From the NCBI GenBank assembly GCA_964566795.1, contig CAZMIU010000001.1:280789-331090 (forward strand): a DNA stretch of 50,302 bases. The letters are read 5' to 3'. Positions 12,442 to 50,302 of this stretch are shown one piece after another (the first letter of the stretch is position 1; each line of letters begins with the position of its first letter). The notes beneath the pieces are model-generated. The model searched no databases. It had not been told where the DNA came from and worked only from the letters and a program-made list of their open reading frames with translations. The position numbers were made by a program, and so were the translations under genes. The stretch comes from an uncultured Candidatus Saccharibacteria bacterium. Lineage in GTDB: Bacteria > Patescibacteriota > Minisyncoccia > Phycocordibacterales > SBAW01.

Positions 12442-12474
12442 AAGAAAAACACCCCGTACTGGGGTGTTTTTCTT
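12442..12474. terminator. Bidirectional terminator
   Basis: AAGAAAAACACCCC-GTACT-GGGGTGTTTTTCTT. Confidence 0.85.
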
Positions 12475-13878: not shown

Positions 13879-13950
13879 TGACCCTACCGGGAATCGAACC
13901 CGGATTGACGGCTTGAAAAGCCGGTGTCCTAACCGTTAGACGATAGGGCC
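13879..13950 (-). tRNA. tRNA-Glu(TTC)
   Basis: Cloverleaf GGCCCTA...TT-TTC-AA...GGTTCGATTCC...TAGGGTCA; CCA not encoded. Confidence 0.95.
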
Positions 13951-14004
13951 TCTTATTTCCCCTATGCAAAGAATACCCCCAAAGGGGTACTTTTGCATTG
14001 GGTG

Positions 14005-14091
14005 CGGAGAGGGAGAGATTCGAACTCTCGGTGAGGTTGCCCCCACGCCACATTTCGAGTGTGGTGCCTTCGACCACTCAGCCACCTCTCC
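14005..14091 (-). tRNA. tRNA-Ser(CGA)
   Basis: Long variable arm; anticodon arm CCACA-CT-CGA-AA-TGTGG. Confidence 0.95.
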
Positions 14092-14163
14092 GTGACCCAC
14101 AAAATAACACTTTTTGAGCCTATTTGCTACACTTGGGGTCATTAGCCGTTTACCCAAACACCT

Positions 14164-14586
14164 ATGAACAGCGTTGTACATTTTGAGATGGGCTATCACG
14201 ACCGCGAGAGGATAAAGAAGTTCTACACAGACGCGTTTGGTTGGAGCATGCAGCAGATGGGGGCTGAGATGGGCAATTATGTGGTGGCGCACACTGCACA
14301 GACCGATGCAAACGGCATGATACAAAAGCCGGGCGCCATAAACGGCGGCTTTTACCAGAAGGAGGGTCCCGACTCCGAGGCGCCGTCGGTTGTTATCGCA
14401 GTCGATGATATCCATGCCTCGATGAAGGCCGTCGAGGCCGCGGGTGGCAAGATTCTGGGCGGTATGCAGCAAGACGGCACTCACACCATGGAGCCAACCA
14501 TGATACCGGGCGTGGGGCTTTGGATATCCATCAAAGACACCGAGGGCAACCGCGTGAGCATGCTGCAGCCAAACCCACGAAACTAG
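14164..14586 (+). CDS. VOC family glyoxalase-like protein
   Basis: VVHFEM...FYTDAFGW, INGGF, IPGVG...DTEGNRVSMLQ. Confidence 0.9.
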   Translation: MNSVVHFEMGYHDRERIKKFYTDAFGWSMQQMGAEMGNYVVAHTAQTDANGMIQKPGAINGGFYQKEGPDSEAPSVVIAVDDIHASMKAVEAAGGKILGGMQQDGTHTMEPTMIPGVGLWISIKDTEGNRVSMLQPNPRN

Positions 14587-14588
14587 TC

Positions 14589-14664
14589 TGGTGCGCGGTA
14601 TAGGACTTGAACCTATGACCCTCCCCACGTCAAGGGGATGCTCTACCAACTGAGCTAACCGCGC
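14589..14664 (-). tRNA. tRNA-Val(GAC)
   Basis: Cloverleaf with TCCCC-TT-GAC-GT-GGGGA and encoded CCA. Confidence 0.95.
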
Positions 14665-14806: not shown

Positions 14807-16015
14807 TCACAGGTACTCCTCAAGGAACGCTACCACAGAGCCCGGCGGAGTCATCCCCGGGTAGCGTTCGTCGCCAATGATGATGCGGTTGGGCTTCTTA
14901 TAGTACGCGGCCGAGAGGTTAAAGGTATAGACCCCCTTCTCCCCCGTACTGCGCAGCCTGTCTTGCGGCCGCTTGTCGCTCGACCACAAAAAGTCCAGAG
15001 ACTCACTCCCAAAGTGCGGCAGCCGCTCCAGAATATACGGAGCAACGCGCGAGCGTGTCGCCAGGAGGAAGGTCACTTCTGCATCACCCCCGCCGTAGAG
15101 CCCGGCACGCAGGTCGGTCAGCGTGTCGCCGGCGTAAAAGAGCCTCAGATCGCGGGTATGGAGGGCCGCGGCCTTTGCGGTACGGCCCACCAGCCAGTTG
15201 ATCATCCGCTCTTTTTCCGCGCCCCACGGTATCAGGTAGAGCGTGTACCGGCTTTTTGCCGGGTCCACCCGGTTTGGATGGCTCTCATCAACAGTCTTAA
15301 CACGCTGCAGGAGCCGGTTGCCCTGCACAGCCTGATCCTCAAGAATCTGCATGAGCTTTTGCATACGCAAGAGCCCATCCACACCCTCAAAGTTAAACTG
15401 CACACGGTAGCGCAAAGGTGCCACGTCGGTAACACCTTTGTAGTAGTTGGAGCCGTACTCAATCGGCGAGAGATAGTGGTGGAACTCCGGGTACACCTGC
15501 ACCATCGCGGCAAGCACCGCATCGCGCCATCGGTTGGGGCTGCCCTCTTTCATCTCTCCGGCAATGTAGTCGTAATTGAGGAAGGTGTCGTACTCCCAGT
15601 CAGTCATGTAGCCATGGCCGTTTCGCATGATGATGCCGCTGCCAAACCCGGCAGAGACATCACGGTCGAGCGAGTGCTTAAAAAACGGCACCTGCGCCGG
15701 GTCTACATACACATGCAGGCCATGTTTATCCCTGCCCCACCTGGGCGGAGGTTCGCTGTAGCCGTGCGCCTGTACGGAAGCAAGACGCATCTTTTCAGAG
15801 AGCATCAGCCCCAGTGTGCGTGCCGACACACTGCCGGTCGCAACACCTTTTCGTATCTGTAGCTCCTCCGCCCTGCGACGGTCTTCAATCTCCTCCTCAG
15901 AGTCAACCTCGCTGCTGTTTACGGTATTGGTGCCATCCTGGTCGGTCAGCACCATGGTCTTGGTCTCCCTCAACTTCTGTGCTGCTACAGACTTAGCGTA
16001 AGGATCTCCCCGCAT
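14807..16015 (-). CDS. HAD-superfamily hydrolase, subclass IIB (sucrose-phosphate-phosphatase-like)
   Basis: Motif I DQDGT, motif III Lys (PWGAEKERM), motif IV GDTLTD; AGGGG SD; TGA stop. Confidence 0.72.
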   Translation of the reverse strand: MRGDPYAKSVAAQKLRETKTMVLTDQDGTNTVNSSEVDSEEEIEDRRRAEELQIRKGVATGSVSARTLGLMLSEKMRLASVQAHGYSEPPPRWGRDKHGLHVYVDPAQVPFFKHSLDRDVSAGFGSGIIMRNGHGYMTDWEYDTFLNYDYIAGEMKEGSPNRWRDAVLAAMVQVYPEFHHYLSPIEYGSNYYKGVTDVAPLRYRVQFNFEGVDGLLRMQKLMQILEDQAVQGNRLLQRVKTVDESHPNRVDPAKSRYTLYLIPWGAEKERMINWLVGRTAKAAALHTRDLRLFYAGDTLTDLRAGLYGGGDAEVTFLLATRSRVAPYILERLPHFGSESLDFLWSSDKRPQDRLRSTGEKGVYTFNLSAAYYKKPNRIIIGDERYPGMTPPGSVVAFLEEYL

Positions 16016-16160: not shown

Positions 16161-17291
16161 ATGAAAGTGCTCGCCATAGAGACCTCCTGCGACGAAACAG
16201 GCATCGCACTCCTTGAGGGCCGCCACAGTGGCGAGACAATGGAGTTTGTGACACTCAAGGCCGAGCTCCTGAGCCAGGCCAAACTCCACGCCCCGTTTGG
16301 AGGCGTCTTCCCCGCGCTCGCCAAGCGCGAGCACACCAAAAACTTGCCGGTGTTGTTTGAGCCGTTTAAAGATGACCAGTTTGACGCCGTAGTTGTGACA
16401 GCCGGACCCGGACTCGAGCCTGCGCTCTGGACAGGCATCGAGTTTGCCAAACAGGTCGCGAGCGAGCGCGGCGTGCCGGTGCTGCCGGTAAACCACATGG
16501 AGGGGCACATTATCTCCTCTCTTGCAGAACGACACCCTGACAAACTTGAGAATGTCGGGATGTCAGTAATTAAAGACGTGCAGTTTCCGGTGCTTGCTCT
16601 GCTAATTTCTGGCGGGCACACGGAGTTAGTACTTACGAAGGATTGGTTTGAGTACGAGATGCTCGGCCGCACGCTCGACGACGCCGTGGGCGAGGCGTTT
16701 GACAAAGTGGCGAGGATGCTCGAGTTGCCCTACCCCGGCGGCCCGGAGATTTCCAAACTTGCATCAAAAAGCCGGGCAGAAAAAGCTACGGGCAAAAGTC
16801 TGGCCGAATCAAATGAGGAGACCCGAGGACTTTTGAACGGAGGTTTTTCTGCCCGGCTCCCGCGCCCCATGCTCAATACCAACTCGTGTGACATGTCTTT
16901 TTCCGGTTTAAAAACAGCTGCACTGTACGCACTAAAAGACAAAAATCTGGCTGCAGAGGAAAAAGCTGCGTTTGCCGCGGAGTTTGAGGATGCCGTGGCC
17001 GAGGTGTTGTGTGCCAAGGTGCGCCGCGCCCTTAATGAAAGCGGCGCCAAGACATTTGTCATTGGCGGCGGTGTGGCGGCCAACCGCTACATCCGCGAGG
17101 AGCTGCAAAAGATAATTCTCGAGGAGTTCTCCGATGTCGAGTTCAGGCTCCCCCACCTCTCCATCACCGGCGACAACGCAGTCATGATAGGCGAGGCCGC
17201 GCTCGCCCGCCTCCTCTTGGGGCACCAGACCCTCGATTCCGCAAGGTTCGACCTTGCGGTAGAGGCCCGCGGCAACCTTTCTTTGGCTTAA
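16161..17291 (+). CDS. tsaD: tRNA N6-threonylcarbamoyladenosine transferase TsaD carrying an in-frame palindromic insertion
   Basis: IETSCDET, HMEGH, SGGHT, DDAVGEAFDK, SFSGLKT, TGDNAVMIG. Confidence 0.96.
   Translation: MKVLAIETSCDETGIALLEGRHSGETMEFVTLKAELLSQAKLHAPFGGVFPALAKREHTKNLPVLFEPFKDDQFDAVVVTAGPGLEPALWTGIEFAKQVASERGVPVLPVNHMEGHIISSLAERHPDKLENVGMSVIKDVQFPVLALLISGGHTELVLTKDWFEYEMLGRTLDDAVGEAFDKVARMLELPYPGGPEISKLASKSRAEKATGKSLAESNEETRGLLNGGFSARLPRPMLNTNSCDMSFSGLKTAALYALKDKNLAAEEKAAFAAEFEDAVAEVLCAKVRRALNESGAKTFVIGGGVAANRYIREELQKIILEEFSDVEFRLPHLSITGDNAVMIGEAALARLLLGHQTLDSARFDLAVEARGNLSLA
16770..16858 (+). repeat. Palindromic element family 1, copy B (in-frame in tsaD)
   Basis: 18-nt arms AGCCGGGCAGAAAAAGCT and AGGTTTTTCTGCCCGGCT; core AGTCTGGCC (16797-16805) and GGAGACCCGAGGACT (16817-16831). 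Confidence 0.9.
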
Positions 17292-20102: not shown

Positions 20103-20627
20103 ATGGCACGAGACAGGCGATCATTGTTTGAGTGGCTCACCGGGAGCCAGGGCGAGGCAGACTACTCTTTTGACGAGCTTGAGCAGGGTGGTGCCTCTTA
20201 CGCTGCACCGGCTCCGGCCCGCTCCAAGCATGTGCCTATCGCTCACCCATCACGCAACGCAGAACCCGCACCTCTGGCCGAAGAGGTCGAGGAGCCGGCA
20301 GGAGAGCTTGCGGTAGACGTCTACCAGACCCCCACGCATATTGTGATAAAGGCCATGATAGCCGGCGTTAAGCCCGACGACCTCGATGTCTCTATCACGC
20401 GCGACATGGTAACCATACGCGGCAAGCGCGAGAGGCATACCGAGGGCACCGCGGGCGACTTCTTCTTTCAGGAGTTGTATTGGGGCGCGTTTAGCCGCAC
20501 TATAGTGCTGCCCCAGGAGGTGGAGATAGAGGAGGCCGAGGCCTCTGAGAAGCACGGGCTCCTTATAGTGCGCCTGCCCAAGCTCGACAAGGGCCGCCAA
20601 GCAAAGCTCAAAGTTAAGTCCAACTAA
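20103..20627 (+). CDS. Hsp20 / alpha-crystallin small heat-shock protein
   Basis: VDVYQT...AGVKPDDLDVSI...WGAFSRTIVLP...GLLIVRLPK. Confidence 0.93.
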   Translation: MARDRRSLFEWLTGSQGEADYSFDELEQGGASYAAPAPARSKHVPIAHPSRNAEPAPLAEEVEEPAGELAVDVYQTPTHIVIKAMIAGVKPDDLDVSITRDMVTIRGKRERHTEGTAGDFFFQELYWGAFSRTIVLPQEVEIEEAEASEKHGLLIVRLPKLDKGRQAKLKVKSN

Positions 20628-20652
20628 AAAATCCCCTTCGGGGGATTTTTTA
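20625..20652. terminator. Bidirectional terminator
   Basis: TAAAAAATCCCC-TTCG-GGGGATTTTTTA. Confidence 0.85.
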
Positions 20653-20661
20653 GTATTGATG

Positions 20662-20734
20662 TGCTTGGGGCCAGGATCGAACTGGCGACATCTTCCTCTT
20701 CAGGGAAGCGCTCTACCAACTGAGCTACCCAAGC
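20662..20734 (-). tRNA. tRNA-Phe(GAA)
   Basis: CTTCC-CT-GAA-GA-GGAAG anticodon arm and standard D and T arms. Confidence 0.95.
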
Positions 20735-20774
20735 GATGAGGTCAGTTTAGCAAAATATGAGCTTTTAAGCCACC

Positions 20775-21068
20775 CTACCGCGGCGCAGTGCTCGAGCCAA
20801 AATACTGCCCAAAAAAGCCCTGCACCTGGCCCTGGAAGTCCTGCGCCGAGCCGTACACAGCTATAATCTGCTCTACATAGGGCTGCACGTAGTTAAAGTA
20901 CGTGTACACCGACACGCCTACCACGAGCGCCCACCACAACAGCGTAAAAAACGTATGCACGCGCTGGCTGCGGCGCAGGCTGTGCACCACGCGGTTGGTG
21001 TCCGCGTTGAGCTGCGCCTGGCGCTTAACAAGCTCCTTGAGCTCGTCCATATCAAGGTCGTTTTCCAT
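20775..21068 (-). CDS. Hypothetical single-TM protein
   Basis: TACAAT-N6-ATG start; coiled N-terminus plus TM helix. Confidence 0.78.
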   Translation of the reverse strand: MENDLDMDELKELVKRQAQLNADTNRVVHSLRRSQRVHTFFTLLWWALVVGVSVYTYFNYVQPYVEQIIAVYGSAQDFQGQVQGFFGQYFGSSTAPR

Positions 21069-21106
21069 ACCTTAATTGTACCATCGGTCACACGCCGGCT
21101 TTTCTC

Positions 21107-21178
21107 TGCCCCCACCAGGAATCGAACCCAGATCTTTTCCTTAGGACGGAATTGCTCTATCCATTGAGCTATGGGGGC
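21107..21178 (-). tRNA. tRNA-Arg(CCT)
   Basis: GCCCCCA acceptor; anticodon loop GT-CCT-AA; GGTTCGATTCC. Confidence 0.9.
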
Positions 21179-21235
21179 TAATGAAAACGACCCCAAAGGG
21201 ATCGCTTTGAGTATGCTATAAATTGTCCTTCTAGA

Positions 21236-21478
21236 CTAGGCCTCGATCCCGAGCTTTGCCGCTATCTTAGCGCGGTCAAAGCCCACCATCATCTCATCAC
21301 CAATGACGATGACAGGGACGCCGAGCTGCCCCGTAAGTTCTATCATCTCTGCCCTCTTTGCGGCGTCTGTCGAGACGTCGTAGCCTGTGTACTCTACCCC
21401 CTTCTCGGCAAAAAAGTCTTTGGCCATCTGGCAGAAGTGGCAGGTCGGAGTGCTGTATATGGTCACTGGTTTTTGCAT
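21236..21478 (-). CDS. Glutaredoxin family protein (YruB/NrdH-like)
   Basis: CHFC active site, GVPVI, VGFD. Confidence 0.93.
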   Translation of the reverse strand: MQKPVTIYSTPTCHFCQMAKDFFAEKGVEYTGYDVSTDAAKRAEMIELTGQLGVPVIVIGDEMMVGFDRAKIAAKLGIEA

Positions 21479-21515
21479 AGGTTCTCTTTTATTGGTAGAT
21501 TTCTGTAAGTATATC

Positions 21516-21589
21516 GCGGGATTAGTTTAGTGGCAAAACATGTGCTTCCCAAGCATAGGACGCGAGTTCGATTCTCGCATCCCGCACCA
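21516..21589 (+). tRNA. tRNA-Gly(CCC)
   Basis: TGTGC-TT-CCC-AA-GCATA; encoded CCA. Confidence 0.95.
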
Positions 21590-28020: not shown

Positions 28021-28137
28021 GACTATATATGCTTAAGAAACGCACAATGCGCTCCCCTGTTAATACGAACCTCCTTAAGTATAGACCCCTCCTGGGACTA
28101 TGGCCCGTATCCTGGGGATATGCTATGCTACACATTA

Positions 28138-28428
28138 GCGCGTTAGGCAATAGCTCCGACGCCCCTTCCGGGGGTGCGGGGAGGAAAGTCCGGGCATCTA
28201 CCGAGCAATCGGTTAAAAAGGTAGCAGGTAACCCCTGCCATTTGCTCCTGCGGGCAAAAGAGGTGCGAACAGAGACGAGCCTCGGTCGAAAGACCGAGGG
28301 TGAAACGGCTAAATCCTTATCCAGATGCAAGGCCGTGCCGTGGCAACACGGAGTGCCGCTCGAGCCCCACGGCGACGTGGGGCCCAGATAAATTATTGTC
28401 CACGACAGAACCCGGCTTACAGACGCGC
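28138..28428 (+). ncRNA. rnpB: RNase P RNA (compact, about 290 nt)
   Basis: GAGGAAAGTCCGGGC (28181) and ACAGAACCCGGCTTAC conserved regions; P1 GCGCGTT/GACGCGC; terminator at 28437-28471. Confidence 0.95.
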
Positions 28429-28469
28429 GCGCAGATGCAAAAGCCCCCGGTAAACCGGGGGCTTTCGCT

Positions 28470-29261: not shown

Positions 29262-29375
29262 ACCTTAAAATTATTTATTAAAACAGCCGTGGCTGCTATG
29301 CCCATAAGCCTAGCACCCCCTCTCCTATAGCGCCAGAGGGGGTATATAGGGGCTGTGGGTATTTACAAAACTCGG

Positions 29376-29460
29376 CGGAGGCGGTGAGATTCGAACTCAC
29401 GGTGGGTTGCCCCACGCCACGTTTCCAACGTGGTGCACTAGACCACTATGCGACGCCTCC
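29376..29460 (-). tRNA. tRNA-Ser(GGA)
   Basis: CCACG-TT-GGA-AA-CGTGG and a long variable arm. Confidence 0.95.
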
Positions 29461-32516: not shown

Positions 32517-34539
<2,023 letters not shown>

Positions 34540-37152: not shown

Positions 37153-39024
37153 ATGCCAGAAGAGAAAAAGCAACAGTCAGGCGCAGGCGGCCATCGCTCG
37201 CGCGGAGGCCGCACACGAGGGTTTGGTGGCCGCACAGGCCGCTCGCGCGGCCGTTTGCGCCAGGGCGGCCCCAAGCCGCACCAGGCACACCCGGTGCGCC
37301 CGGACATAGACACAAAAGTTAATCCGGATGAAAAGCCGGTCCCGCCGCTTGCCCCGGGCAACATCCGCATTATCCCGCTTGGAGGCGTAGAGGAAATAGG
37401 CCGCAACATGACCATGGTCGAGTTTGGCGACGACATTATCGCCATCGACTGCGGCTTCCAGTTTAGAGAGCAGGACACCCCGGGTGTGGACTACATTTTG
37501 CCCAACACCAAGTACATGGAGGAGCGCCGCGATCGCGTGCGCGGGCTCTTTATCACGCACGGCCACCTCGACCATATTGGCGGCATCCCCTACGTTATAG
37601 ACCGCATCGGCTACCCGCCCGTCTACACGCGCGCACTTACTGCCGTTATGATCCGCAAACGCCAGGAAGAGTTCCCCAACCTCAAGCCTTTGGACATCAA
37701 GGAGGTAGAGAAGGCCGACACCGTAACCGTGGGCAAGCTCAAGGTCCGGTTCTTTAGCGTGACCCACACCATCCCCGACGCCATGGGCGTCATTGTCGAG
37801 ACCCCGTACGGCGACCTTGTGTTTACAGGCGACCTCAAGGTCGACCACAACGACGGTGTCCCCACCCCCGAGGAGGAAAAGGAGTTTGCCTACTTTAAGG
37901 ACCGTAAAGTGCTCTTTTTGGCAGCCGACAGCACAAACTGCGAGCGCGCCGGCTTCTCTATCCCCGAGCGCGTGGTTACCAAAACGATGGACGACATTAT
38001 CGCAACCACGCCGGGCCGCCTTATTATTGGCACCTTCTCATCCCAGCTCGAGCGCCTTATGCGCATCATCGAGCAGGCCGAGCGCGTGGGCCGCAAGATA
38101 TTGGTTGAGGGCCGCTCGATGAAGGTCAACATCGAGATAGTAAAGCATCTGGGCCTCCTCAAGGTCTCCGACAAGACCTTTATCGACTCCGCCCAGCTTG
38201 AAAACTTCCCCGACCCTAAAGTCTTGGTACTTGCTACAGGCGCACAGGGCGACGAGTTTGCCGCGCTCATGCGCATCGCGATGAAGACGCACAAGTACGT
38301 CAAGATGAAAAAGGGCGACACGGTCGTGCTTTCCTCATCGGTCGTGCCGGGCAACGAGAGAAGCGTGCAGAAGCTCAAGGACAACCTCTCGCGCCAGGGC
38401 GCGCGCATCATCCACCGCGAGCAGATGGATGTGCATGCCTCCGGCCACGCCAACCGCGACGAGACCTTCTGGATCCACCAAAAGATCAATCCGCGCTTCT
38501 TTATGCCCATGCACGGCTACCACTACATGCTGCGCGTACACGCAGATATCGCCAAGGCCTGCGGCCGCCAGGAGGACGAGATTATTGTCCCGGACAACGG
38601 CGCCATACTCGAGATCAGAGACGAGGGGCAGAAAATTGTCCGTCTCAAGGAGTCGGCTCCCAATAGCCTAAGGCTCGTAGACGGCTTTGCTATCGGCGAC
38701 ATCCAGGAGGTTGTGATACGCGACCGCACCGTGCTCGCTCAAGAGGGCATGTTTGTCATCATCGCCACGGTGAACCCCAAGACTGGCAAGTTGCGCAAAT
38801 CGCCCGACATCATCTCGCGCGGCTTTGTCTACCTCAGAGAGTCTCAGGATCTCCTGAACCAGGCACGCATCCTGGTCAAGAAATCCATCGAGGACGCGGC
38901 CAAGGGTCAGCAGCCGGTCAACTTTGACTTTGTCAAAAACCAGGTCACCGACAACCTCGCCCGCTTCCTGTTTGAGAAGACCAACAAGCGCCCGATAGTG
39001 ATCCCGGTAGTCCTAGGCGTCTAG
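37153..39024 (+). CDS. rnj: Ribonuclease J with an RG-rich N-terminal extension
   Basis: PLGGVEEIGRNM, THGHLDHIG, HASGH, PMHG. Confidence 0.95.
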   Translation: MPEEKKQQSGAGGHRSRGGRTRGFGGRTGRSRGRLRQGGPKPHQAHPVRPDIDTKVNPDEKPVPPLAPGNIRIIPLGGVEEIGRNMTMVEFGDDIIAIDCGFQFREQDTPGVDYILPNTKYMEERRDRVRGLFITHGHLDHIGGIPYVIDRIGYPPVYTRALTAVMIRKRQEEFPNLKPLDIKEVEKADTVTVGKLKVRFFSVTHTIPDAMGVIVETPYGDLVFTGDLKVDHNDGVPTPEEEKEFAYFKDRKVLFLAADSTNCERAGFSIPERVVTKTMDDIIATTPGRLIIGTFSSQLERLMRIIEQAERVGRKILVEGRSMKVNIEIVKHLGLLKVSDKTFIDSAQLENFPDPKVLVLATGAQGDEFAALMRIAMKTHKYVKMKKGDTVVLSSSVVPGNERSVQKLKDNLSRQGARIIHREQMDVHASGHANRDETFWIHQKINPRFFMPMHGYHYMLRVHADIAKACGRQEDEIIVPDNGAILEIRDEGQKIVRLKESAPNSLRLVDGFAIGDIQEVVIRDRTVLAQEGMFVIIATVNPKTGKLRKSPDIISRGFVYLRESQDLLNQARILVKKSIEDAAKGQQPVNFDFVKNQVTDNLARFLFEKTNKRPIVIPVVLGV

Positions 39025-39813
39025 CGTCCTGCGTATTTCTCTCTCGCTTGCTCCGCGCTCCAAAAGGGCGCGGAGTTTGTTTGCGCGCTTTTGGCGGGTG
39101 CTGCCCTCAAACTTACTTTGTTTGGCGTAGTGCTTGCTTTTTTGGTTAAGCCGCACACCCTGGCGCTTGAGGTGCGAGCCGTAGTCCATAAGCGCCGCAT
39201 AAAAGTCCCTGGGCTGCATCTTAGACTTCTTTAGAGCCTGCTCAACAAGGGGCAAAAGCTCCCTGTCGCTTATACTAGTGTTTTGCAAAACACCAGAATA
39301 GATATGATGAAAGAAAACGGTGCGGATGTTTGTTTCTATAAACACCGTAGGCTCGTTAAAGGCAAATGCCTGGACTGCCGCAACAGTATATGGCCCAACA
39401 CCAGGGAGCTTTGCCCGCGAAGCGGAAACTTTCTGGAAAAATAGTCTGGCCCGCAAGCGCTCCGAGCGCGAGACGGGAGACCCGAGGACTTTTTTCTGGG
39501 AAGTTTCCGTGGAGAGTATCTTTCCTGTCTCCCACAGGTACTTGCCGCGGCGGTTGTAGCCCAGACCCTGCCAGGCTTTTAGCACGCGCGAGAGCGGTGC
39601 CATCGCAAGCACCCTAGGGGTCGGAAATAGTTTAAGCCAGCGCTCGTAGTACGGAATTACCCTCTCTACTTGGGTCTGCTGCAGCATCACCTCGCTCACC
39701 AAAATGCGGTACGGGTCGCGCGTGTGGCGCCAGGGCAAATGCCTGCGGGCGCTTGTCTTGTAGTGCTTTTTGAGCGCCGCTACAAGCTCCAAAATAGCCT
39801 TGTCGTGGCTCAT
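39013..39813 (-). CDS. mutY: MutY-like A/G-specific adenine glycosylase without the 4Fe-4S Cys motif, carrying an in-frame palindromic insertion
   Basis: LPWR, VSEVMLQQT, WQGLGYNRR, LPGVGPYT, ALMDYGS with no following Cys cluster. Confidence 0.85.
   Translation of the reverse strand: MSHDKAILELVAALKKHYKTSARRHLPWRHTRDPYRILVSEVMLQQTQVERVIPYYERWLKLFPTPRVLAMAPLSRVLKAWQGLGYNRRGKYLWETGKILSTETSQKKVLGSPVSRSERLRARLFFQKVSASRAKLPGVGPYTVAAVQAFAFNEPTVFIETNIRTVFFHHIYSGVLQNTSISDRELLPLVEQALKKSKMQPRDFYAALMDYGSHLKRQGVRLNQKSKHYAKQSKFEGSTRQKRANKLRALLERGASEREIRRTLDA
39422..39510 (+). repeat. Palindromic element family 1, copy C (in-frame and antisense in mutY)
   Basis: Arms GCGGAAACTTTCTGGAAAAATAGTCT and GGACTTTTTTCTGGGAAGTTTCCGT; core at 39443-39451 and 39476-39490. 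Confidence 0.9.
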
Positions 39814-40283: not shown

Positions 40284-40317
40284 AACAAAAAATCCCCCGG
40301 GTGGGGGATTTTTTGTT
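40284..40317. terminator. Bidirectional terminator
   Basis: AACAAAAAATCCCCC-GGGT-GGGGGATTTTTTGTT. Confidence 0.85.
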
Positions 40318-42798: not shown

Positions 42799-44340
42799 CT
42801 AGTCGGCGGGCTCTATCAACCCCAGTTTAATTAAACGGGCGTGTATCGAGCCGCGCTGGCGGCCAAACTCTTTGACCAGTGCGGCTACGCCTGTGCCCTC
42901 CTCAAACATGGTTGTGAGTTTGTCGTCGTCGTCTTGTGTCCAAGGCCTGTAGGCGTTGGGGTGTTTTTGGCGCAGTTTGTCGAGCTTCGACATCTCAACC
43001 TCTGGCTTAGGTTTGTTTGGGTCGGGTTCGTGCCCGCCGGATGCTTTAGTAAACTGCTTGTGCATGTCCTCAATCTCCTCGGGCGGCAGTTTGCCAAATA
43101 TCTCCTCCGCGCTCATCGAGGCCGCGCGAAACGCCTGGTCTCGCGCCAAAATGTCCGGGTGCACAGCCAGAGCGCGCTCGTTAATGCCAAGCAGGTAGAG
43201 CCCGCTTAGGTTGCGCACACGGCTTAAAGCCACATAGCCCTGCCCATACTCAAACGCGTCCGATAAGTCCATCACCGCGGCATCAAGACTCATCCCCTGG
43301 CTCTTGTGCACCGTAATAGCCCACGCCAGGCGCAGCGGCACCTGCGTTATCTGTGCCAACACGCGGTTGCCGTCGGCCACCTGCCAGGTGTCTGGCTCGG
43401 CCTCTATAACCTTGCCGGCACGGGTTGCCACCTTGGGCCAACCGGCGTCGCTCCAGCCCACCACCGTGCCGAGTGTGCCGTTAACGTATCCGTGCTCAAA
43501 GTTGTTGCGCGTAAACATCACCGTCGCGCCCTCTTTTAAAGAAAGCGTCCCGGGCGATAAGCATCCGCGCTTAAGCGCTTCCACCAGAGTGGTAGAGCCC
43601 GATGAGCGCATGTGGTATACCTTGAGCGCGTTCTCTATGCGCGACAGCGCCTCCTCGTTTATACGGTCTACGTCCTCGTTGTGGGTATAAAGTCTGGTGG
43701 CGTCCTCGGGGAGCTCGCCCACTTCGTGCCGCGTCTTGAGCAGTTCGCGATGCTCATCCTCAAGCTCGCCTTGGCGCATCGCACCCAATAGCCCCAAGAA
43801 CATGCCGTCGTCCTGGCGGTGCTGCTCGTGTAAGTAGCACGTAAGCGGGTTGGCGTCCTCCCACGCGCCTGACTCAAAGGCAAATTTGGTTGGCCCCTCA
43901 CGCGACACCGGCGGTAATTGAAAGAAGTCGCCCACAAAGACAACCTGCAGCCCGCCAAAGGGCTTGTCGCTACCGCGCAGGGTGGTAAGTGCGCGGTCTA
44001 CCAGTGTTAAGAGGTTGGCATCGAGCATAGACACCTCGTCAATGATAAGCACCTGGGCCGCGCGCACACGCCGCACCAGAGGCTCGCGCTCCATAAGCGC
44101 CTCAAGCTCCCAGTCGCTGAGTGACTTTTTAATCCCCACACCGCTCCAGGCGTGTATGGTCATACCGCCCACGTGTGTGGCGGCAATACCTGTAGAGGCG
44201 GTAATAGCGGGCTCTATGCCGCGTTCGCGCAGCCACGCCACATAGCGGTTAATAACGTAGGTCTTGCCTGCGCCCGGCTCGCCTGTAAGGAATACGTTGG
44301 CTCCGGTCTTGAGTATTGTCAGTGCCTGCTCCTGTGTCAT
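42799..44340 (-). CDS. Pif1-family 5'-3' helicase with a small C-terminal helical domain
   Basis: GEPGAGKT, DEVSM, GDFFQLPPV, ITVHKSQGMS, YVALSRV; C-terminal AYRPWTQDDDDKL...I..RL.KLG. Confidence 0.92.
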   Translation of the reverse strand: MTQEQALTILKTGANVFLTGEPGAGKTYVINRYVAWLRERGIEPAITASTGIAATHVGGMTIHAWSGVGIKKSLSDWELEALMEREPLVRRVRAAQVLIIDEVSMLDANLLTLVDRALTTLRGSDKPFGGLQVVFVGDFFQLPPVSREGPTKFAFESGAWEDANPLTCYLHEQHRQDDGMFLGLLGAMRQGELEDEHRELLKTRHEVGELPEDATRLYTHNEDVDRINEEALSRIENALKVYHMRSSGSTTLVEALKRGCLSPGTLSLKEGATVMFTRNNFEHGYVNGTLGTVVGWSDAGWPKVATRAGKVIEAEPDTWQVADGNRVLAQITQVPLRLAWAITVHKSQGMSLDAAVMDLSDAFEYGQGYVALSRVRNLSGLYLLGINERALAVHPDILARDQAFRAASMSAEEIFGKLPPEEIEDMHKQFTKASGGHEPDPNKPKPEVEMSKLDKLRQKHPNAYRPWTQDDDDKLTTMFEEGTGVAALVKEFGRQRGSIHARLIKLGLIEPAD

Positions 44341-44346
44341 ATATCC

Positions 44347-44447
44347 GCAAAATCAGAGTTTGTAAGAGTACGGATAATTTTTTGCTAAAAATTTCCTCAA
44401 GTCTCGTGTCGTCACACTTGCGAAGCCTCTTACAAACTCTATTTTGC
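44347..44447. repeat. Palindromic element family 3 (intergenic, immediately upstream of pif1)
   Basis: Arms GCAAAATCAGAGTTTGTAAGAG (44347-44368) and CTCTTACAAACTCTATTTTGC (44427-44447) enclose two inner hairpins and GCGAAGC. Confidence 0.8.
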
Positions 44448-44947: not shown

Positions 44948-45619
44948 CTAGTCCCACTCTTCAGTAGGGACAGCGCTAATATCCTCGGCGTCGGCCACTG
45001 CGGCCGGGATTACGCACAACACGCGCCCCGCAATTTTAAAGTCCTCGCGCAACACTATCGGCTTGTATTTAGGGTCTTTGTTCTCCGGGTAGAGGATGGT
45101 GACTCCCTCGCGGCGCTCCAGTCGCTTTACCGTCACCATGTCGCCCACTATCGCCGCCACCCTGTCGCCGCTCCTCACGTTGTCCGTAAACTGCACCAAA
45201 ATGTAGTCGCCGCTGTTAATCCCGGCGTCGAGCATACTGTCGCCCACAGCGCGCACAGCTACAATGTTGCCGTCCTCGCCCGCAATGTTTTTGTCTACCT
45301 GTAAAAACTCGTCGTACTGCTCTTGCGCGTACACAGACAGATCGTCACACCCCACATTGGCCACCACCGGCACCGAGACAAGCGTCTCGGAGCGGCCAAA
45401 CGCGTCTATGGGGCGCAGCTCTATGTTGCGGCGCGCATAGCGGCGGCGCACCACATAGCCCTTGCGCTCAAGGATGTCTAAGTACTGCACCACCGTGCGT
45501 ATAGACTTAAACCCCAGGTTTTTACGCAGCTCATCTAGAGTGGGCGGCTCGCCCTTGGCCTCTAGGTACAGGGAGATGTTCTCCAAAACACGCTTCTGCT
45601 TGCCGGTGAGTGTGCTCAT
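44948..45619 (-). CDS. lexA: LexA-like repressor (wHTH plus S24 peptidase)
   Basis: LT.KQKRVL..I...PPTLDEL, L..LERKGY, GDSM (Ser), VTVKRL (Lys). Confidence 0.88.
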
Positions 45620-48442: not shown

Positions 48443-49474
48443 CTAAGATCTAAGAAAAAGTCCAAAAACTGTCTCTCTGTGCCATTTTAATGAGATTAGA
48501 TTAGGCCGAGATCGAGAATCTTGTGGCAGAAAAACCGGCTTTCCTTCTAATTCTTTAAGATACTCCACATGCATGGCTTGAGGGTGTACTTTTATTCTAT
48601 AATCGTCGGTAACAGTAAAAAAACCTTTGTCAAAGGCCCAATGTAAATTTCTTTCAAAAGCTATCCCGTTGGAAGGGTGTGGCCCTCCTCCAAATGCACG
48701 AGCTTGTAGGTGTGCTGCCTCAAGATTAAAAAAGTCTTTATAATTAATTAAGAGTTTCTTCCCAGTTACAGCGCATTTGTATTCGTAGTAATGCAATATT
48801 AAGTCCCTAAAAGATCTGCTTCTCAATACTCTGGTTTCCACCGATTTATCCTCCTCCAATATAACTGATTGGGAAACAGGCTCCTTTAATGCAAATTCAA
48901 GAACTTCATTAGGTATAACTTTCTTGCCTACTTCTTTTATACGTCTAAGTCCATCGAGAAATGCTAATTTGGAAAGTGGAACTAGCGCGTGGCTCTTTTT
49001 TGGACCAACTGCAATCTCCTGAAGTATCGAATCAAGGTTGCCATATTCTCGCGATCCAGGAATATACCGCAATGTTTTATAAAAAATGTTTACTAATTCT
49101 TTAGTTTCCGGCTCAAGCACACGTAATTTTACAATTACAACAATATCGTTAGGTTTGAAAAAATTTGCACCCGGATCGATCTCCCCATTTAGATAAAGCC
49201 TATATTCATCCCTATTTTCCCCATCAGGTCCTGTAGCATATTTACTGTTATGGTATACATACCTCGAAGAAACAGTCTCATCTGAATTTACTGAAAAAAT
49301 ATCGAGCAGAACATGATCGTTTAGAGCAACCTTACTTAACGGAGGGAAGAAGTTAATTGCCTTCTTTGAAATTAGAAAATACCTCCCCCCTCCTCCTGGA
49401 CGACCTTTCCTAAACCCCAACTCTTGAGGCTGCAGTCTCCTTATATAAGCTAACTCGTCGAATTCATACTCCAT
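48443..49474 (-). CDS. HNH endonuclease (putative restriction enzyme)
   Basis: YEYKCAVTG...LEAAHL...NGIAF..NLHWAFDKG; AT-rich DNA; overlaps the methyltransferase gene. Confidence 0.88.
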   Translation of the reverse strand: MEYEFDELAYIRRLQPQELGFRKGRPGGGGRYFLISKKAINFFPPLSKVALNDHVLLDIFSVNSDETVSSRYVYHNSKYATGPDGENRDEYRLYLNGEIDPGANFFKPNDIVVIVKLRVLEPETKELVNIFYKTLRYIPGSREYGNLDSILQEIAVGPKKSHALVPLSKLAFLDGLRRIKEVGKKVIPNEVLEFALKEPVSQSVILEEDKSVETRVLRSRSFRDLILHYYEYKCAVTGKKLLINYKDFFNLEAAHLQARAFGGGPHPSNGIAFERNLHWAFDKGFFTVTDDYRIKVHPQAMHVEYLKELEGKPVFLPQDSRSRPNLISLKWHRETVFGLFLRS

Positions 49475-50302
49475 AACCTTGATGTCTCTTGTTCTACAAG
49501 ATTATCATCCAAAAAGGAAGCTACCGATTCTGCAACAGCCTGCGCAAGCAACGGGGGTACAGCATTTCCGATCATTTTATATTGATCCCCCATAGAGCCC
49601 AAAAACTCAAAATCGTCAGGGAATGACTGTAACCGAGCGGCCTCTCGTACGGTTATTGAGCGAGCCTGGTCTGGGTCGGGATGTATATGGCGCAATCCAT
49701 CTTTATGCAAATGTGACACAATAGTGTTACTTTGTTTGTTTGGCTCTAATACGTAATACTTATGTACGCTAGATACTTTGCCTGTCTTTTCTGTATATAG
49801 CTTTTTTAGTGCCTCGGCTGAGGCATACTTACGTTTAGTCCTCCGAAGATCGAGCGCAAGTTCTTTAAAGATCGCAATGTCCCTTGTATTATGAAACCTG
49901 GGGCTGTGATTGAGAATGTTGGTTGTTGCAGGTATGTGAGAATTTTTCTCTTTTTTATTCTTATTCACTGCAAACTTTGGTAAGTCAAATATAGCCTCGG
50001 CAACGGTCTTCTTCCTCGTTTTATGCGAAGTAAGCGTGTTTGTATAGAAGTCGCACAACAACTCCTGCGGATCCTGTTCAAAAGACTCATCTCGAATACC
50101 AAAGAGCACAACGCGTCTCCTGTTTTGCGGCACACCAAATTCTGCCGCATCAACTTGGGCATATTTTTCAATGTCTTCAACAAGAGAGTAGCCAATCTCC
50201 TTGAAGGTCTGTCTAACCCTTTCAACAATAGGTATGCCCCCAGGTCGGGCACTAAGCATGCCAGGGACGTTCTCAAATATAAATGCGTGAGGTTGTAGCC
50301 TG
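49450..50302 (-). CDS. DNA (cytosine-5) methyltransferase, 5' part outside the window
   Basis: FENVPGM at the edge, FGVPQNRRRV (motif VIII), ITVREAARLQSFPD (IX), IGNAVPP (X). Confidence 0.93.
   Translation of the reverse strand, partial: RLQPHAFIFENVPGMLSARPGGIPIVERVRQTFKEIGYSLVEDIEKYAQVDAAEFGVPQNRRRVVLFGIRDESFEQDPQELLCDFYTNTLTSHKTRKKTVAEAIFDLPKFAVNKNKKEKNSHIPATTNILNHSPRFHNTRDIAIFKELALDLRRTKRKYASAEALKKLYTEKTGKVSSVHKYYVLEPNKQSNTIVSHLHKDGLRHIHPDPDQARSITVREAARLQSFPDDFEFLGSMGDQYKMIGNAVPPLLAQAVAESVASFLDDNLVEQETSRLWSMNSTS

Follow-up and report, generated by a model that had tools for sequence, protein, structure and literature searches.

Rickettsia palindromic elements are short palindromes of a reduced genome; many lie in frame in housekeeping genes, where they are translated as extra peptides compatible with the fold of the host protein, and other copies are intergenic (Ogata et al. 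2000, summarised in PMC10969869). Here we describe a hairpin element that invites comparison with them, found in a 50,302-nt stretch of DNA (the window) from an uncultured Candidatus Saccharibacteria bacterium (GenBank assembly GCA_964566795.1, contig CAZMIU010000001.1, positions 280,789 to 331,090). The element belongs to a repeat family, here called Family-1, and lies in frame within tsaD, an essential tRNA-modification gene that encodes the tRNA t6A threonylcarbamoyltransferase. Genomes of the candidate phyla radiation (CPR, Patescibacteria), to which the host belongs, are about 1 Mb in size and are thought to be poor in mobile DNA. With a probability of about 0.6, we read the element as a selfish, non-autonomous hairpin repeat, similar in kind to the Rickettsia palindromic elements, which TsaD carries as translated sequence and tolerates in a permissive loop.

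Like the Rickettsia elements, Family-1 is a multi-copy palindrome that occurs in frame in unrelated protein genes and also in intergenic DNA. The likeness is one of analogy only: there is no sequence relation, and the hosts are Patescibacteria, not Rickettsia. The Rickettsia elements are about 100-150 bp long with a consensus over the whole length, whereas Family-1 conserves only a centre of 30-55 nt and has copy-specific arms. Moreover, unlike the Rickettsia elements, Family-1 is found repeatedly at the same protein positions, in several frames and in both orientations.

[quoted passage not shown] In Family-1, however, the terminal inverted repeats are not conserved (distal-arm identity about 0.6) and the conserved block is central. 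A MITE's defining marks are a parent insertion sequence (IS), terminal inverted repeats of conserved sequence and a target-site duplication specific to each copy. Because Family-1 has neither conserved termini nor a copy-specific target duplication, and no parent IS was found within 3 kb at the 113 loci, it is not a classical MITE. With REP/REPIN-RAYT and IS200/IS605-derived elements it shares a hairpin-based structure, the absence of target duplication, a short conserved boundary word, the importance of one strand and an orientation linked to the replication strand. Even so, Family-1 is not a REP. REPs have a 5' GTAG or CGTC tag (PMC3733652). They are 20-40 bp long and extragenic, whereas Family-1 copies are 75-138 nt long, mostly intragenic and bounded by GRAGC, and no Y1/HUH transposase has been linked to them. 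In addition, the better-folding strand of Family-1 lies on the C-rich (lagging) strand, which the IS608 rule would not predict for an active strand. PARCELs (palindromic amphipathic repeat coding elements), finally, are coding palindromes that can be read from either strand and have spread among unrelated hosts (PMC2996958). Family-1 is likewise palindromic and coding-compatible on both strands, but PARCELs are arranged in tandem within surface proteins, where they code for amphipathic helices, whereas Family-1 copies are inserted singly into enzyme loops and their peptides have no property in common.

The element within tsaD

The tsaD gene lies at positions 16161-17291 of the + strand and encodes 376 residues from the ATG at 16161, which is taken as the start of TsaD in an open reading frame (ORF) running from 16143/16161 to 17291. 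The N-terminus, MKVLAIETSCDETG, agrees with solved TsaD structures. The product is a full-length member of PF00814 that matches the E. coli YgjD/TsaD structures 4wq5 and 4ydu (phmmer E = 6.6e-65) and contains the motifs HMEGH, GGPxISKLA, LPRPM and FSGLK, including those on either side of the insert.

In the window TsaD, a 31-residue peptide, SKSRAEKATGKSLAESNEETRGLLNGGFSAR, separates ISKLA from LPRPM. The phmmer match splits exactly at this insert, where query residues 206->233 correspond to residues 192->197 of the E. coli chain. E. coli TsaD has 9 residues (AQGTAGRFV) between KMA and FPRPM, compared with 11-13 in CPR relatives that lack the insert. We compared the 120 closest homologues of TsaD (59-100% identity): in 54 of them the loop is short, at 11-16 residues (mode 13, for example AKSREAGAARDIK), and the DNA contains no hairpin. 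The initial annotation, which had read an element at 16770-16858 as sense-strand, in-frame coding sequence within TsaD at a place where roughly 10 residues are normal, is thus borne out. Some relatives that lack the Family-1 core also have long loops, but the DNA of these (L114, L125, L155 and L156) contains other hairpin insertions, and the loops are not natively long.

The element, copy B of the family in the window, spans positions 16770-16858 of the + strand (89 nt) and encodes residues S204 to R232 (SRAEKATGKSLAESNEETRGLLNGGFSAR) in the sense orientation. It folds with -48.5 kcal/mol (RNA folding; z = -6.0; none of 200 shuffles equally stable) and scores 61.1 bits against the family covariance model (E = 1.6e-13). 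The z score, the bit score and the presence of the core pattern in more than 113 Patescibacteria contigs together indicate that the hairpin is not a chance structure. The two 31-nt arms (16770-16800 and 16828-16858) are 87% complementary. As first noted, the outer 18 nt pair at 17 of 18 positions; 15 of these pairs are contiguous and perfect. The conserved core at 16798-16830 (+) consists of GTCTGGCC, a short inner hairpin of 12 nt and GAGACCCGAGGAC, and matches the family pattern exactly. The left arm proper (16770-16797, +) encodes SRAEKATGK, and its outer 15 nt, AGCCGGGCAGAAAAA, pair perfectly with 16844-16858. The right arm proper (16831-16858, +) encodes LLNGGFSAR and supplies the first two nucleotides of the L233 codon; GGT TTT TCT GCC CGG CTC encodes GFSARL, as annotated. 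The inner loop, from GTCTGGCC to GAGACC, is 12 nt long compared with 24-25 nt in the other two window copies, in agreement with the description of copy B as shortened.

Relatives without an insert have a loop of 13 residues, which the loop of the window TsaD exceeds by about 18. The hairpin itself spans about 30 codons, so part of the native loop has been replaced, as had been proposed. The further suggestion, that the left arm may copy the target in inverted form, is not supported. The arms fit a family-wide consensus with an A-rich left side (..GCAGAAAnnTTCTnGAGAAAAUA) and a U-rich right side. In the MutY gene of the window, compared with an insert-free relative, a copy has added about 27 residues with a 91-nt hairpin, both arms being extra. 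In addition, codons matching invariant native residues (S204-R205, AGC CGG) sit at the left end of copy B; if either arm mirrors the other, it is the right that mirrors the left. Both arms are element-borne, and derivation of the arms from the target is rejected. What stands of the original interpretation is an inserted element, read as translated in frame, in a predicted permissive loop that it partly replaced. That the loop is occupied recurrently across the clade had not been noticed there.

To assess the effect on the protein, we built an AlphaFold2 model with 60 homologues. The TsaD fold is predicted with confidence (mean predicted local distance difference test score, pLDDT, 86.7; predicted template-modelling score, pTM, 0.87) and superimposes on E. 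coli YgjD-YeaZ structures with template-modelling (TM) scores of 0.86-0.88 (Foldseek). In the model, the left-arm residues 202-209 extend the native helix 193-209. Residues 211-230 have pLDDT values of 51-60, and residues 220-226 fall below 50. The model indicates that the insert is a disordered surface excursion on an intact TsaD fold, consistent with the surface loop's being permissive, as the initial annotation had supposed. In the cryo-EM structure of the T. maritima TsaB2D-tRNA complex, the tRNA is reported to be contacted by the alpha1-alpha2 hairpin, helix alpha7, F207SFSGLK213 and the beta8-alpha5 loop, and the account of that structure mentions no tRNA contact from the loop that is replaced here (PMC13276492). 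The FSGLK motif of the window TsaD lies at residues 247-251, at least 12 residues past the insert.

Divergently upstream of tsaD lies a 402-residue ORF without a Pfam match (14807-16015, -). This neighbour is kept in several relatives (L152 and L154-L157, 381-410 residues), and the linkage of tsaD to valS is conserved too.

Copies, distribution and architecture of Family-1

The window contains the word AGGAGACCCGAGGACTTTT three times, and a covariance model built from 112 copies detects exactly three copies there, scoring 80.7 (copy C), 77 (copy A) and 61 bits (copy B). The insert in tsaD is thus a member of a repeat family, as originally described. All three copies have in common a near-invariant centre, GTCTGGCC-[variable hairpin]-GGAGACCCGAGGAC; their arms differ between copies and are complementary within each. 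Copy A (2129-2214, +) lies outside genes, where pth (1578-2108, -) and lepB (2268-2825, +) diverge. The spacer that it occupies is 160 nt long and is a promoter region, not a terminator position. Copy C (39420-39510, +) lies within the gene of a MutY-like HhH-GPD glycosylase (39013-39813, -) and is read antisense (..TETSQKKVLGSPVSRSERLRARLFFQKVSA.. / ..KKVLGSPVSRSERLRARLFFQK..) directly ahead of the LPGVGPYT hairpin-helix motif. Neither the solved homologue 8uuc nor an insert-free relative has the residues that it adds. The density is about one copy per 17 kb. All three copies are on the + strand, whose GC skew is negative over most of the window. A further covariance-model match at 34430-34531 (E = 1.7) was dismissed as AT-rich noise.

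Family-1 is a Patescibacteria-wide family of short hairpin (palindromic) repeats. The distribution was scanned with the exact core pattern in one genome per species, and the figures are lower bounds among the matches listed. More than 113 stretches with the exact core were listed, all but about two of them in metagenome-assembled genomes of Patescibacteria/CPR. The hosts among these matches include Adler-, Kaiser-, Nomura- and Zambryskibacteria, Paceibacteria/Parcubacteria and bins labelled Saccharibacteria. More than one copy is present in several genomes (at least five in bin CALMXW01). The two matches outside the CPR lack arms and are probably due to chance. No viral contig matched the core. 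A scan of the window with Rfam 15 at gathering score returned only tRNAs and RNase P, and permissive scans added miRNA-hairpin noise far below the cut-offs. In the literature we found neither the Family-1 sequence nor a description of such an element in the CPR.

In the alignment of the 112 copies (A3), GUCUGGCC and G(G)AGACCCGAGGAC are invariant, an invariance imposed by the exact-match pattern used for collecting; diverged copies retain GUCUGG and ACCCGAGGAC. The core begins with a GUC/GAC helix and continues through an internal loop, in which U faces CGAG, to a GG/CC helix; an AGA bulge separates this from a CC/GG helix. That last helix is capped by an apical stem-loop whose length ranges from 5 to over 35 nt. 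The apical loops are mostly C(GNA)G triloops, very often GCGAAGC. Such loops are classic stable DNA mini-hairpins, GCGAAGC being the ultra-stable one, rather than typical RNA tetraloops. The flanking arms, 20-30 nt each, have a loose consensus (left, A-rich, ..GCAGAAAnnUUCUnGAGAAAAUA; right, T-rich, UUUUUCGAAAGAAnnUUUCUGC) with a recurrent tandem G.A mismatch. Complete elements measure 75-138 nt, of which the 30-55-nt centre is conserved. The arms covary: 89.7% of cells are paired compared with 77.9% in shuffles, and 296 cells show double changes compared with 89 in shuffles (0/500), with every slid control lower. At both boundaries, near -25 and +22/+23, the word GRAGC is enriched about 16-fold.

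Several known structures were considered for the core. By eye, ribozyme, K-turn, SRP-like and bulge-helix-bulge intron readings do not fit the conserved positions. A terminator was rejected because the U-run lies inside the stem, not after it, and because copy A lies between divergent gene starts.

Recurrent sites, strand bias and constraint on the core

Longer loops between ISKLA and LPRPM occur in 66 of the 120 TsaD homologues, and 31 of the 120 have loop peptides diagnostic of Family-1. These peptides fall into three classes. Two are sense readings, KSLA..EETRGLL and, with a different frame on the left-hand side, KWSGL..E(E/N)xRGPL; the third, GPR(V/I)S..GPDH, is antisense. The covariance model confirms Family-1 DNA for the sense reading in L152, L153, L127 and L128, and for the antisense reading in L123 and L157. 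Peptides of the types EGLRSA..ARTE, (H/R)LGSSQRE and KSWPSG..ERPES looked like Family-1 read in other frames; the corresponding DNA (L114, L140, L155 and L156) is not, and they were not counted.

Other hairpins occupy the same loop. A second family is present in the TsaD loop of L125 (1631-1756; KKGEMNTTPTPF), with the antisense peptide KGVGVVFISPF. Its DNA, AAAAGGGAGAGATGAACACGACCCCAACTCCCTTTT, is found in L125, in L150 and in MutY homologues (P0125, P0141, P0152, P0179 and others), with the sense peptide KGEMNTTPTPF; it is not present in the window. The TsaD loop of L155 (1056-1196) contains a different hairpin with 20-bp perfect arms (GCTTCGGCGCATACTCCCCA / TGGGGAGTATGCGCCGAAGC), another core and the peptide ..KGKSWPSGPERPES... 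Further distinct or decayed hairpin forms are found in L114, L131, L135, L140 and L156. Filled and empty TsaD sites are intermixed on a neighbour-joining tree.

The MutY site behaves likewise: many homologues have inserts at the same point, the second family included, and most are insert-free. Clustering of ORFs at or near exact cores shows that the same positions are hit in different genomes in TsaD, the inter-domain linker of Pol I, RecG, RecJ, the C-terminus of ParB, HolB, UvrA and a class-I aminoacyl-tRNA synthetase (aaRS). DNA-repair and replication proteins are conspicuous among these hosts. In TsaD, a second site near residue 70, before IDAIAVTSGPGLEP, is used in L048, L056, L093 and L104 and is empty in the window. 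The frame and orientation at one site vary between genomes.

The inner hairpins are specific to the genome rather than to the site. Their identity is 0.73 between different sites of the same genome; it is 0.53 when one site is compared across genomes and 0.49 in pairs drawn at random (p = 2e-5), whereas distal-arm identity is about 0.6 in every class (same site 0.60, random 0.57). Simple vertical inheritance with independent drift is therefore excluded. As judged from these identities, either genomes re-colonise the same sites or cores are homogenised within each genome.

Of 116 copies, more than half (61) are placed well within long ORFs, 41 of them antisense and 20 sense, and about one-third are intergenic or near gene ends. 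The core is free of stop codons in all six frames, and every copy scored as intra-ORF leaves the host frame open.

The two strands of the element are not equivalent. When the distal arms alone are folded, the top strand folds better in 98 of 112 copies. Structure-aware counts give 134 G.U(T) wobble pairs in the distal arms of the top strand and 21 in those of the bottom strand (an ungapped count of G.U versus A.C is uninformative owing to bulges). The asymmetry holds for sense copies, antisense copies and copies without a host gene, and in antisense copies only it is 64 to 8. Because it is independent of the orientation of the host gene, selection at the mRNA level cannot account for it. A single-stranded form of the top strand, probably DNA, thus appears to matter. 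The top strand is the C-rich strand at 81 of 107 loci (p = 9e-8), and this bias is weaker but persists after correction for gene orientation (intercept -0.022, t = -3.9).

The core is also constrained at the nucleotide level. The tsaD orthologue of L152 has 89% amino-acid and 83% nucleotide identity to the window gene. Positions 16787-16840 show no difference in 54 nt, compared with 167 differences in 1023 nt (16.3%) elsewhere in tsaD (Fisher p = 1.4e-4). The changes in the distal arms are compensatory: CGG GCA on the left has become CGG AAA (GC->AA), and CTGCCC on the right has become CTTTCA (GC->TT). In the mutY copy compared with L158, synonymous differences affect 3 of 30 identical-residue codons inside the element and 66 of 159 outside (p = 7.5e-4). 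The conservation of the core at synonymous sites indicates that the core is kept at the nucleotide level, either by selection or by conversion.

Origin of the element and other features of the window

The element landed in the tsaD loop between the GGPxISKLA helix and LPRPM, overwriting most of the native 13-residue loop. The open frame suggests, with moderate confidence, that the insert is simply translated. With similar confidence, TsaD would tolerate it because the roughly 18 extra residues form a disordered surface excursion. The element would act as a hairpin of top-strand single-stranded DNA. The complementarity of its arms may be upheld by hairpin-templated correction or by compensatory change, and its core either by gene conversion among the copies or because selection favours its recognition by a protein that mobilises or binds it. 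By analogy, we infer with moderate confidence that the family behaves as selfish DNA comparable to the Rickettsia palindromic elements.

Several observations weigh against this reading. No copy-specific target-site duplication was found, the longest shared flank word reaching at least 6 nt in 18% of copies compared with 13% of mismatched controls. No long autonomous version with the same core halves lies within 3 kb at the 113 loci, whole genomes not having been searched, and the 50-kb window contains no transposase or other mobilising gene. Identical protein positions are used repeatedly in many genomes, unlike most insertions of MITEs or Rickettsia palindromic elements. The translation of the insert is read from the open frame. 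Finally, the conservation of the core at synonymous sites is unexpected for inert selfish DNA and hints at a function in situ or at concerted evolution. Four features go further than the precedent of the Rickettsia palindromic elements and leave room for a more novel mechanism or a host function: a conserved centre whose arms vary individually yet stay symmetric, the bias towards the top strand, the constraint on the core and the repeated occupation of the same protein loops. We also entertain, tentatively, an undescribed class of CPR hairpin elements that would not be inert, MITE-like passengers. In this class the core would be actively maintained in every resident copy, through selection or through machinery dedicated to conversion or transposition that acts on a single-stranded DNA hairpin; the arms would be individually 'barcoded' yet symmetrical; and the elements would home to a few fixed loops of housekeeping proteins, notably ones for DNA repair and replication.

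Rather unlikely is the idea that the hairpin is a signal that benefits the host at fixed positions, such as a site on single-stranded DNA for the binding or loading of a replication, repair, segregation or DNA-uptake factor, or a small antisense RNA, with the peptide as a by-product. The nucleotide-level constraint between orthologous copies, the strand-biased orientation, the pairing asymmetry of the top strand and the filling of the same housekeeping-gene positions across genera, many of them in repair or replication genes, are all consistent with it, and the genome-specific inner hairpins (0.73 versus 0.53, p = 2e-5) would fit co-evolution with a genome-encoded partner. However, the site is dispensable, because 54 of 120 TsaD homologues and most MutY homologues are insert-free with native-length loops; the same loops also hold decayed copies and hairpins of other families, there is no known partner protein, and the density of one copy per 17 kb or so in the window is low. 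We consider it unlikely that the insertions are ancient and vertically inherited, with inversion between the arms (which keeps length and frame), gene conversion within genomes and no ongoing transposition. Under saturated neutral divergence, same-site distal arms would be no closer than random ones, as is seen (0.60 versus 0.57); close orthologues (window/L152 and window/L158) have arms in common, inner hairpins are genome-specific, and no transposase is seen. Against this stand the fine intermixing of filled and empty states on the TsaD tree, the presence of several unrelated hairpin families at the same sites, and the native-like empty loops, which cannot be regenerated by deleting an insert that had overwritten them.

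Readings at the RNA level fare worse. A structured cis-acting RNA of the tsaD mRNA, serving as a regulatory element or an RNase processing site, would account for the stable hairpin, the strong covariation, the conserved core and the constrained synonymous sites, but it is improbable: intra-ORF copies are antisense twice as often as sense, the wobble pairs favour the top strand even where the mRNA carries the bottom strand (64 versus 8), copy A lies between divergent promoters, there is no match to an Rfam family, and the apical loops are of the DNA mini-hairpin type (C(GNA)G, GCGAAGC). It is very improbable indeed that the insert is missing from the mature protein through removal from the mRNA or ribosome bypass, as with yeast mitochondrial byp elements or T4 gene 60. 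The strength of the hairpin and the essentiality of TsaD could be cited for it, and nothing direct. The hairpin is 89 nt long, which is not a multiple of 3, and excision of the 89 nt, or of 90-nt neighbours, would give ISKLASK-PRPM, at least 10 residues below any native loop. In addition, the open frames of the intra-ORF copies and the absence of stop codons from the core in six frames are what selection for translatability predicts.

A repeat family is embedded, and by its open frames probably translated, in some of the most conserved enzymes of the CPR (TsaD, Pol I, RecG, RecJ, UvrA, MutY, ParB and aaRS). This explains many odd lineage-specific 'insertions' in alignments of CPR proteins, and it calls for caution in annotation and structure prediction. 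The copies also amount to a natural experiment on which enzyme loops can bear 20-30 random residues. The architecture, the strand bias and the repeated sites together point to an unknown mechanism at the DNA level. Should the elements form an undescribed class, they would represent a new site-specific mechanism of single-strand transposition or gene conversion, or a host-integrated signal inside essential genes.

The window contains several features outside the family. At 44350-44445, upstream of the gene for a PIF1-like helicase (42799-44340, -) and close to a lexA-like gene (44948-45619), there is a 19-nt inverted repeat with a 58-nt spacer containing GCGAAGC; it is not Family-1. The tail at 48443-50259 is low in GC (0.43, compared with about 0.57 in the rest of the window) and codes for an HNH_2 endonuclease and for a C-5 cytosine methylase; it is probably an acquired restriction-modification module. 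An RNase P RNA of bacterial type A at 28135-28435 scores 108.9 bits, barely above the threshold of 100, and seven tRNA genes lie at 13879-14664, 20661-21589 and 29374-29460. Short bidirectional terminators consisting of an A-run, a stem and a T-run are found at 12442-12474, 20623-20654 and 40284-40317.

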